Part shown: one piece after another, positions 10,614 to 11,364 of the stretch
Layout of the letters: each line of letters begins with the position of its first letter
Numbering within the stretch: the stretch's first letter is position 1
Sequence record: OR844768
DNA: 46,941 nt
Reading direction: 5' to 3' (one strand)
DNA from: Escherichia phage ECO111 5-P
Made by a program: the position numbers and the translations under genes
Notes under the pieces: generated by a model
Seen by the model: the letters and a program-made list of their open reading frames with translations, nothing else
The model's database searches: none
Told to the model about the DNA's origin: nothing

Positions 10614-10751
10614 ATGAAGTGCTTGATGTGCGGGAAAGACCTGTTGCCAGGATGCAGAAGTGACAAGAAGTACTGCTGTCCATATTGCAGGCTGAAGGCG
10701 ATGAGGAAAAGAAATGCAAAAGAAAAATCTCTCCATAAAAATGGAGCTTAA
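10614..10751 (+). CDS. small zinc-ribbon protein (CxxC...CCxxC), 45 aa
   Basis: MKCLMCGKDLLPGCRSDKKYCCPYCRLK; overlaps start of next gene. Confidence 0.4.
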   Translation: MKCLMCGKDLLPGCRSDKKYCCPYCRLKAMRKRNAKEKSLHKNGA

Positions 10752-11364
10752 CAGAGATATAAAGAAAGGAAAAAGAAAGCCAATATTTGGTGTTGGAGTT
10801 AATGATTGTGGCTTCGGTGTGGCGATGAAAGTTGATGGTAAAAAGGTGCAACATTATGGATATAGCCAATGGTATCAAATGCTCAGAAGGTGTTTTGATG
10901 ATGAATACAAAAAACAACACAAAACCTATGAGCATGTTACTTGTTGTAATGAGTGGTTGCTGTTTTCAAACTTTAATTTGTGGTGGAAGAACCATTACGT
11001 TGAAGGGTGGCACCTTGATAAGGATATATTGATTCCTGGTAATTTGACTTACTCACCTGAAGCATGTGTTTACGTGCCTCCGCACCTAAACAACTTCGTG
11101 ACAGCAAGGAATGCCTCGAGAGGTGACTTTCCTATAGGTGTATCATTTAATAAGTGTTCTGGCGCTTATCAGGCACACATAGGTGATGGCAATGGTCGTA
11201 CAGTATTTTTAGGCTATTTCAGCTCGGTGATTGAAGCGCATCAGGCATGGAAGAATGAAAAAATAAAGCAAGCAAAGCAAATGAATGGTTTATGTGATTC
11301 TATACACCCAATGCTGTTTGATGGTCTAATGAAGAAAGTTTACATGATATGTGATATAGGGTGA
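10714..11364 (+). CDS. putative HNH-type homing endonuclease-like protein with AP2-like DNA-binding domain
   Basis: HNH-like H-x-D...N...N stretch (GWHLDKDILIPGN...PPHLNN) and AP2-like GVSFNKCSGAYQAHIGDGNGRTVFLGYFSSVIEAHQAW; RBS GAGGA; alternative start 10741. Confidence 0.45.
   Translation: MQKKNLSIKMELNRDIKKGKRKPIFGVGVNDCGFGVAMKVDGKKVQHYGYSQWYQMLRRCFDDEYKKQHKTYEHVTCCNEWLLFSNFNLWWKNHYVEGWHLDKDILIPGNLTYSPEACVYVPPHLNNFVTARNASRGDFPIGVSFNKCSGAYQAHIGDGNGRTVFLGYFSSVIEAHQAWKNEKIKQAKQMNGLCDSIHPMLFDGLMKKVYMICDIG

Follow-up and report, generated by a model that had tools for sequence, protein, structure and literature searches.

The 46,941-nucleotide (nt) stretch of Escherichia phage ECO111 5-P DNA analyzed here (sequence record OR844768; hereafter, the window) carries a short cassette in which a 45–amino acid (aa) zinc-ribbon open reading frame (ORF) overlaps the start of a 216-aa gene from a family of putative homing endonucleases. 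Comparisons with related phages show that the promoter, a dyad, and the zinc gene form an ancient and conserved module, behind which the nuclease has been exchanged, at its start codon, among IPA-HNH, HNH_3+AP2, and HNH_5 types. Taken as a whole, the locus is best explained as a self-contained mobile two-gene homing endonuclease cassette with a zinc-protein leader, a reading in which we place about even confidence. The nuclease itself is unremarkable: its family has recently been named, and RefSeq relatives already carry the annotation. What appears to be undescribed is the small zinc-finger gene with its private promoter and dyad, which stay constant while three nuclease families are exchanged at single-nucleotide register. 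The features of the cassette are as follows (plus strand, except for the dyad, which has no strand).

10514..11356: the whole mobile cassette, an insertion of ~840 base pairs (bp) compared to nuclease-free relatives (alignment with phage seszw, L002)
10568..10596: sigma-70–like promoter found by a promoter scan, with a −35 TTGATA, a 17-nt spacer, and a TG-extended −10 TATCTT
10575..10594: dyad GATAAC-N8-GTTATC (extends to TGATAACA/TGTTATC), which fills the spacer and overlaps the −10; a candidate operator or hairpin
10603..10607: Shine-Dalgarno sequence GAGGG of the zinc ORF, 6 nt 5′ of ATG 10614; GAGG is kept in all cassette lineages
10614..10751: zinc-ribbon (treble-clef–like) gene, 45 aa; residues 1 to 34 are conserved, and the tail is an out-of-frame reading of the nuclease gene
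10703..10707: Shine-Dalgarno sequence GAGGA of the nuclease, inside the zinc ORF and 6 nt 5′ of ATG 10714
10703..10716: dual-coding junction (GAGGA plus ATG) within the zinc-ORF codons M30-R31-K32-R33-N34 (ATG AGG AAA AGA AAT)
10714..11364: putative homing endonuclease of the IPA-HNH family, 216 aa (match to phrog_953, “HNH endonuclease,” E = 1e-72)

The zinc ORF runs from ATG 10614 to TAA 10749-10751 and encodes MKCLMCGKDLLPGCRSDKKYCCPYCRLKAMRKRNAKEKSLHKNGA, with cysteines arranged as C3-x2-C6 and C21,C22-x2-C25. The 216-aa ORF runs from ATG 10714 to TGA 11362-11364, in the +1 frame relative to the zinc ORF, and the two share 38 nt. The original prediction, made from the sequence of the window alone, had described this pair of overlapping frames, and both are present as described, each with a good Shine-Dalgarno sequence. 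The program-made list of ORFs starts the zinc ORF at GTG 10587. With no ribosome-binding site and a position 5′ of the predicted −10, this codon is a poor candidate, and ATG 10614 is the likely start.

The same leader was found in six lineages, which differ in the nuclease that follows it.

Group A: the window and its 11 close relatives; IPA-HNH nuclease, 216 aa
Group B: VLCpiS13b and K1M; HNH_3+AP2 nuclease, 162 aa
Group C: VLCpiS13d and L021; HNH_5/HNH nuclease, 214 aa, with a GTG start
Group D: L011 and L019; HNH_3+AP2 nuclease, 164 aa
Group E: SeSz-2, Vi II-E1, L014, and L020; HNH_3+AP2 nuclease, 167 aa
Group F: L023; HNH_3+AP2 nuclease, 186 aa

In all six lineages, the nuclease starts exactly 100 nt downstream of the zinc ATG, with ATG in five and GTG in one; the register was checked in the window, VLCpiS13b, K1M, SeSz-2, VLCpiS13d, L011, L014, L020, L021, and L023. 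No BLASTP similarity was detected between the window nuclease and the HNH_3-type nuclease, and the conserved DNA block stops at the nuclease start codon or a few bases beyond it. The Shine-Dalgarno sequence and start codon of the nuclease are encoded by the M/T-R-K/R-R-N/R codons of the zinc protein. Arg31, whose codon forms part of this Shine-Dalgarno sequence, is specified by the rare AGG in each of the six. The original prediction regarded the overlap as unusual. It is no oddity of the window genome, however, since it is conserved in a module common to several cassettes and, judging by these comparisons, is a fixed dual-coding junction of that module and not an accident. The overlap exists because the module itself supplies no stop codon to the zinc ORF, which continues to a stop in the incoming nuclease gene. 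A perfect hairpin, CTCCAT-AAAA-ATGGAG (10731..10746), lies within the overlap just 5′ of the zinc-ORF stop and spans an alternative ATG at 10741; it was seen in group A only.

The zinc protein and the nuclease are very probably separate polypeptides. RNA folding around the nuclease start in four lineages revealed no conserved structure that would hide the ribosome-binding site, which is consistent with independent initiation. The alternative, that a programmed +1 frameshift yields some zinc-nuclease fusion besides the two separate products, seems to us very improbable, although in every lineage the nuclease reads in the +1 frame. Ribosomes might shift at AGG-AAA-AGA (10704..10712), where a Shine-Dalgarno–like GAGG is followed by a slippery AAA_A and the rare codon AGA; a TGA at 10702-10704 closes the nuclease frame, which is open from 10705 onward. 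In this sole possible shift window, groups A, B, and D have AAA_A and the rare AGA, and group E has a tandem AGG-AGG-AGA; fusions of a zinc ribbon to an HNH domain occur naturally, in NinG-like proteins and in the protein P0162 (described below). However, the slippery run is missing in group C (AAG AGA) and group F (AAA CGA), no stimulatory structure is conserved, and neither are the tails and stop contexts of the zinc ORF. In contrast, all six lineages, including the one with the ATG-to-GTG change, retain a start codon at an ideal distance from a Shine-Dalgarno sequence.

The pattern of substitution shows that the zinc ORF is a genuine gene on which strong purifying selection acts. Synonymous sites are saturated between cassette lineages (pS of 0.63 to 1.06), while pN is 0.06 to 0.18; as a control, the other two frames of the same DNA gave dN/dS values of 0.5 to 3.2 and contained stop codons. 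A tblastn search found the ORF at 62 to 100% amino acid identity in ~24 phage records, so that the small ORF, whose conservation in relatives the original prediction had left to be checked, is indeed conserved; it was also found in IMG/VR, metagenome, and assembly contigs. Invariant residues include C3, C6, C21, C25, G7, K8, R15, D17, K18, K19, and Y20, as well as most of residues 7 to 33, while tails past residue 34 are unrelated between lineages. In the AlphaFold2 model (pLDDT of 78), a zinc knuckle is followed by a basic helix at residues 23 to 41. The four predicted zinc ligands thus stand in the knuckle-plus-helix arrangement of a zinc ribbon or treble-clef finger.

Gene callers mostly missed the zinc ORF, and only four protein clusters containing it were found in a collection of 5.8 billion sequences. 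Among the records inspected, it is unannotated in the GenBank and RefSeq records of C1 and ZK22 and in the RefSeq record of VLCpiS13b; it is labeled “hypothetical” in PHA46_2 and “DNA gyrase inhibitor” in INT55 and INT59 (OP745620 and OP745621). One LPSTLL record may hold an extra small ORF call at this site. The small coding sequence annotated at 1494..1604 of K1M (L005) lies in the third frame, and the same frame contains stops in the window; we took it to be a mis-call. In the phage collection, the zinc ORF always accompanies a nuclease gene and was never found alone. A separate observation concerns the contig Ga0255047_10000992 (L022), where a 120-aa protein (1142..1504) shares 59% identity with the zinc finger over 34 aa at its N terminus and continues with more cysteine-rich repeats; no nuclease gene starts there at +100.

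The mobility of the cassette is apparent from a comparison of occupied and empty sites, which are bordered by two genes on the plus strand.

10329..10511: left-flank gene, DUF7540 (Pfam E = 2.4e-32)
11369..11605: right-flank gene, phrog_10786, whose Shine-Dalgarno sequence GGTGATGAT overlaps the nuclease stop codon

In phage seszw, the DUF7540 gene and the next gene are only ~25 to 35 bp apart, whereas the window has ~840 extra bases that comprise a ~100-bp leader, the zinc ORF, and the nuclease ORF. At its right end, the insertion restores a Shine-Dalgarno sequence for the gene that follows. The flanks are matched by 128 related phage records, of which 11 contain the whole region; the rest (e.g., seszw clones) match in two pieces. 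Carriers are 96 to 98% identical in the cassette compared to 85 to 95% in the flanks, and the first 120 bp of the right flank exist as two alleles (the window/L008/seszw type and the C1/ZK22/BS5 type, 74 to 78% identical) next to the same cassette. Presence or absence at one site, combined with an element that is more conserved than its flanks, characterizes a free-standing homing endonuclease gene, and this distribution is the one that would be expected of a homing element moving between co-infecting phages. The same site is used by other nucleases. Groups A, B, C, D, and F are located directly after the DUF7540 stop codon, even where this gene is only 52 to 59% identical (Klebsiella and Citrobacter phages). 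In group E phages, this site is empty, and the cassette is found ~1.4 kb farther downstream. Overall, we consider it very likely that the locus is a mobile nuclease cassette with a real, functional zinc-finger gene.

Two further observations relate to the history of the cassettes. At the 5′ end of the group A cassette (10514..10567), part of the promoter region is repeated (TTGATATG... and GTGATAATG); the repeat resembles both the real promoter and the Shine-Dalgarno region of the empty site and may be a footprint of the original insertion. In two sister cassettes, Vi II-E1 (L013, from position 2601) and OOAU01000203 (L019, from position 435), the HNH_3 nuclease ORF is broken (39 and 58 aa, respectively), and the promoter and zinc ORF are intact. 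These copies are consistent with the decay of a selfish nuclease; two cases are too few to claim that the zinc gene is preferentially kept.

The promoter and dyad are conserved together with the gene they precede. The hexamers, their spacing, and the dyad are kept in groups A, C, D, and E, although synonymous sites of the adjacent ORF are saturated; in groups B and F, the −35 is weak and the −10 is kept. The dyad is a perfect 20-bp palindrome in group C (VLCpiS13d), while in group E (SeSz-2) both arms are changed, giving GATACC-N8-GGTATC. GATAAC-type dyads go with R at residue 26 of the zinc protein, and GATACC-type dyads go with K. Folding z-scores at the dyad were unremarkable except in the group C lineage. 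Neither of two other interpretations of the dyad was retained: as a phage-wide promoter motif, it has a single exact copy in the window, and as a Fur box, the region reached 11 to 14 matches out of 19, which is only marginally over background.

To what type of finger the zinc protein belongs was assessed with profiles. The protein itself gave no significant match to curated Pfam or NCBIfam models, including DUF2116, NinG-N, and zf-FCS. A hidden Markov model (HMM) search of 1.84 billion representatives found at least 150 relatives at E ≤ 1e-3, most of which are tandem arrays of CxxCG..F.P.R.D.kYCS..CR..A.R.R. The Pfam matches among 149 of these relatives were Ecl1 (39), the N terminus of NinG, an HNH-type nuclease (30), the “probable treble clef” DUF2116 (25), and zf-FCS (4); three relatives also bear HNH-type domains. 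In P0162, a 245-aa protein from the protein collection, an HNH_3 nuclease is followed by four tandem fingers of this type in the position usually taken by AP2. P0165 has an N-terminal region that resembles a phage integrase by eye, and then four fingers. Two unrelated viral contigs encode large proteins with the finger at the C terminus and weak zf-CGNR matches. The zinc protein shares with treble-clef/FCS-like fingers (DUF2116, zf-FCS, the N terminus of lambda NinG/Rap, and zf-CGNR) the pattern C-x2-CG-x...R-x-D-x-K-YC(S/C)-x2-C-R-x-x-A-x-R-x-R and the succession of knuckle and basic helix, but it stands alone as one unit, while most relatives have the finger in tandem arrays or as a terminal domain. 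Since the finger occurs in tandem arrays fused to nuclease- and integrase-like proteins and matches the NinG N terminus, a nucleic acid–binding role of the zinc protein is likely.

Such a role could be exerted on the target DNA instead of the promoter. In a two-component endonuclease of this kind, the zinc protein would be a DNA-binding or specificity cofactor of the nuclease and not a regulator. The finger array that replaces AP2 in P0162, the matches to NinG, the constant company of a nuclease gene, and the site after DUF7540 shared by cassettes with different nucleases are all in line with this possibility. A precedent is “Group 4” of Xu and Gupta (2013, PMC3592412), who describe HNH endonucleases with an adjacent zinc-ribbon protein and suggest that the latter is a regulator or a (mini-)specificity subunit; fused versions exist. 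As in our cassette, a small zinc-ribbon gene lies directly beside a phage HNH-type nuclease gene. However, the Group 4 proteins are cos/terminase-associated nicking enzymes with a canonical His-Asn-His and [CxxC]2, and the examples inspected all come from Gram-positive hosts (Bacillus and Lactobacillus). In the window, the 216-aa protein has no [CxxC]2 HNH motif, the probable terminase gene is ~2 kb away, other nuclease families are involved, the dual-coding overlap is fixed, and the zinc gene and promoter stay constant while nucleases are exchanged. A cofactor would also have to serve three unrelated nuclease architectures that have DNA-binding domains of their own (AP2 or a 150-aa C-terminal domain). 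Moreover, the SeSz-2 group has a similar zinc protein at another genomic site, and the contig of P0013, an IPA-HNH homologue from elsewhere, has no zinc ORF upstream. We therefore regard a cofactor role as rather unlikely.

Another alternative is that the zinc ORF is cargo unrelated to the nuclease, e.g., a host-directed gyrase inhibitor similar to YacG that hitchhikes or pays for retention of the cassette. The gyrase inhibitor label in two GenBank records, matches of 2 of the 149 distant relatives to the YacG model, and the strong selection acting on the protein would all fit. The C-x2-CGK...(F/Y)C-x3-C spacing also resembles that of YacG. YacG acts via an acidic, tryptophan-containing C-terminal tail. 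The tail of the zinc protein, in contrast, is a basic helix followed by nonconserved read-through, with no counterpart of the conserved GyrB-binding tail, and three variants of the protein gave no match to the YacG Pfam model at E ≤ 10. Cargo status would leave unexplained the invariant coupling to the nuclease start and the private promoter and dyad, and we find it improbable. Since the zinc gene, promoter, and dyad stay together while the nuclease is replaced, and this leader is absent from the P0013 IPA-HNH locus, the function of the zinc protein most likely concerns the cassette itself.

The 216-aa protein has two predicted domains, both on the plus strand.

10771..11118: N-terminal nuclease-like domain, aa 20 to 135 (β strands at 100 to 102 and 119 to 121, helix at 123 to 128)
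11128..11268: C-terminal AP2 DNA-binding domain, aa ~139 to 185 (structure model and profile match)

Its family is large: the protein collection contains more than 870 homologues, and 1535 phage records were matched by tblastn. Members occur in ICP1 and Rheinheimera “barba” phages, and Pseudomonas phages also score. RefSeq relatives are labeled “HNH endonuclease,” and some relatives are called only DNA-binding proteins. The closest link to a characterized system is to the ORF that directly follows the DNA polymerase gene in ICP1_2006_B (BLASTP E = 5e-28, 31% identity), which, from its position, we infer to be gp59. In the work of Barth, Dunham, and Seed (2023, PMC10448857), gp59 is a founding member of “IPA-HNH,” a family associated with AP2 and proposed to consist of homing endonucleases, in which the nuclease domain has diverged too far to be recognized by the Pfam HNH_3 model; Barbaviruses are highlighted among the carriers, and Flaumdraviruses are also named. 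The window protein resembles this family in its homology to the ICP1 ORF, in its divergent N-terminal nuclease domain, missed by HNH_3, that precedes a C-terminal AP2, in being encoded by a free-standing gene of patchy distribution, and in its abundance in “barba” phages. It differs in that a conserved zinc-ribbon gene, equipped with a promoter and dyad of its own, precedes and overlaps the nuclease gene; term searches of PMC10448857 returned no mention of a zinc-ribbon leader.

The AP2 domain proposed in the original prediction was borne out. The AlphaFold2 model (pLDDT of 94) has the three-stranded sheet on a helix seen in solved AP2 structures, and the family profile matched WRI1 in the Protein Data Bank (PDB) with E = 2.6e-8; the single sequence scored 13.8 bits against Pfam AP2, under the curated cutoff, and had no match in the PDB. 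The proposed HNH-like stretch is present as sequence (WHLDKD...GN...LNN), but its histidine, H100, varies in the family (H/E/Q/D/K/V...; Q in ICP1). The residues that are invariant in 121 family members of 33 to 45% identity are W53, R59, Y72, F87, D102, K103, D104, Y113, N126, G142, and G167, with D102-K103-D104 encoded at 11017-11025 and N126 at 11089-11091; this alignment thus holds an invariant D-K-D...N and no conserved histidine. The suggested HMM check returned no HNH-type match in Pfam (HNH, HNH_3, and HNH_5; E ≤ 1) or in NCBIfam (E ≤ 10); the “HNH endonuclease” label was reached through PHROG families only. With hhalign, only AP2 was aligned to a five-sequence HNH_3 template. Against 120 HNH_3-AP2 proteins, the full-length alignment was collinear and paired LDK with IDH, GN with DN, and N126 with the HNH_3 asparagine, at posteriors of only 0.1 to 0.5, and the N-terminal domain alone was not significant (E = 0.089). 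In the model, D-K-D falls where the first strand ends, and the helix contains N126, a layout that would fit a ββα-Me motif. The collinear alignment puts K103 opposite the histidine of IDH, where His-Me fingers have their conserved catalytic histidine. We conclude that the protein is an IPA-HNH family member whose “HNH” nature is plausible, with a lysine apparently replacing the catalytic histidine. That the active-site candidates of IPA-HNH are D-K-D...N, not His-Asn-His, calls for caution before treating the family as ordinary HNH enzymes. Near-invariant C60 and C118, together with a cysteine pair at 75/78 (77/78 in the window protein), could form a structural zinc site in the nuclease domain. 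A second IPA-HNH–like stretch in the window, at 27930-28040 on the minus strand, is an antisense chance match inside structural genes.

The designation of the gene as a homing endonuclease is supported by the proposal made for its family and by the presence/absence polymorphism in close relatives; it lacks a curated HNH match. The protein might instead be no active homing nuclease but a degenerate relative that only binds DNA, or a domesticated one, with the insertions and deletions reflecting ordinary gene gain and loss. No HNH model or fold was matched, a lysine occupies the HNH_3 histidine position, and some relatives bear only the DNA-binding label. However, invariance of D102-K103-D104, Y113, and N126 at such low overall identity is what an active site would be expected to show. 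The family is multicopy and patchy across many phage lineages in the manner of homing endonuclease genes (PMC10448857), the cassette is more conserved than the two flank alleles it adjoins, and broken sister copies are as expected for selfish genes. Loss of activity or domestication thus appears to be an improbable explanation.

In the mechanism that we favor for the two-gene homing cassette, one small transcription unit would give rise to two separate polypeptides. The zinc protein would be a small nucleic acid–binding accessory that represses its own promoter at the dyad; repression, together with ribosome traffic over the embedded nuclease start, would keep a potentially toxic nuclease low. 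The AP2 domain would target the nuclease, which would cut nuclease-free phage genomes near the DUF7540 junction during co-infection, and repair after the cut would copy the cassette into the empty genome. A known parallel is I-TevI, which represses its own synthesis at an operator overlapping its promoter, and both mobE and I-TevI are under translational control. Similarly, our cassette has a palindrome over the promoter of a homing endonuclease unit and a nuclease start placed where translation can be limited. In I-TevI, the nuclease is itself the repressor; the candidate regulator here would be a separate 5-kDa zinc-finger protein common to unrelated nucleases.

Regulation at the dyad is the single most likely role of the zinc protein but a tentative one, and several points speak against it or against the scheme of which it is a part. 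The argument for a regulator is the co-conservation of dyad and gene and no other evidence. The correlation of R26 or K26 with operator type amounts to about two independent changes. In groups B and F, the left arm of the dyad and the −35 run into the end of the upstream gene, with the arm over its stop codon, and both are degenerate. Half-site centers lying ~14 bp from each other are less than ideal for binding by a simple dimer, and a hairpin, in RNA or DNA, would be an equally good reading of the dyad. As for the nuclease, there is the missing HNH fold match, along with the lysine in place of the HNH_3 catalytic histidine; nuclease activity of IPA-HNH proteins is here putative.

If the zinc protein does control or assist the nuclease, then the cassette would be a compact example of how selfish nucleases are kept nontoxic or are targeted, and it would illustrate the modular assembly of new homing endonuclease genes. 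A bolder extension, which we consider doubtful, is that the promoter-dyad-zinc-finger unit is a portable “docking platform” that captures unrelated nuclease ORFs at one dual-coding junction (GAGGAAAAGAAATG). The 5-kDa zinc protein would then be a dyad repressor or a shared subunit, maybe joined to the nuclease by a +1 frameshift in some lineages. This would represent a new organizational principle, a constant leader with exchangeable warheads.

The window is the ~47-kb sequence of a siphophage of the Skatevirus/Deseoctovirus group. The nearest records are Escherichia phage C1 and Salmonella phages ZK22, LPSTLL, BS5, INT55/59, and PHA46_2. The cassette lies in a block of small plus-strand genes between a minus-strand block and the ORF at 13353..14795. 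By synteny with relatives, the minus-strand block beside the locus contains helicase and replication genes. The ORF at 13353..14795, ~2 kb downstream with several genes between, is probably the terminase large subunit gene, judging by its position in relatives.

The original prediction counted the 216-aa gene as the second putative homing endonuclease of this genome, and another was indeed found. It is a 291-aa ORF at 41354..42229 on the minus strand, opposite to the plus-strand late genes among which it lies, with matches to T5orf172/MUG113 (GIY-YIG–like) and to DUF723/treble-clef zinc fingers. Two other minus-strand ORFs are a Vut_1-like one at 15589..16053, encoding a putative vitamin or queuosine-precursor transporter, and a ParB-HTH/KorB-like one at 31624..32436.

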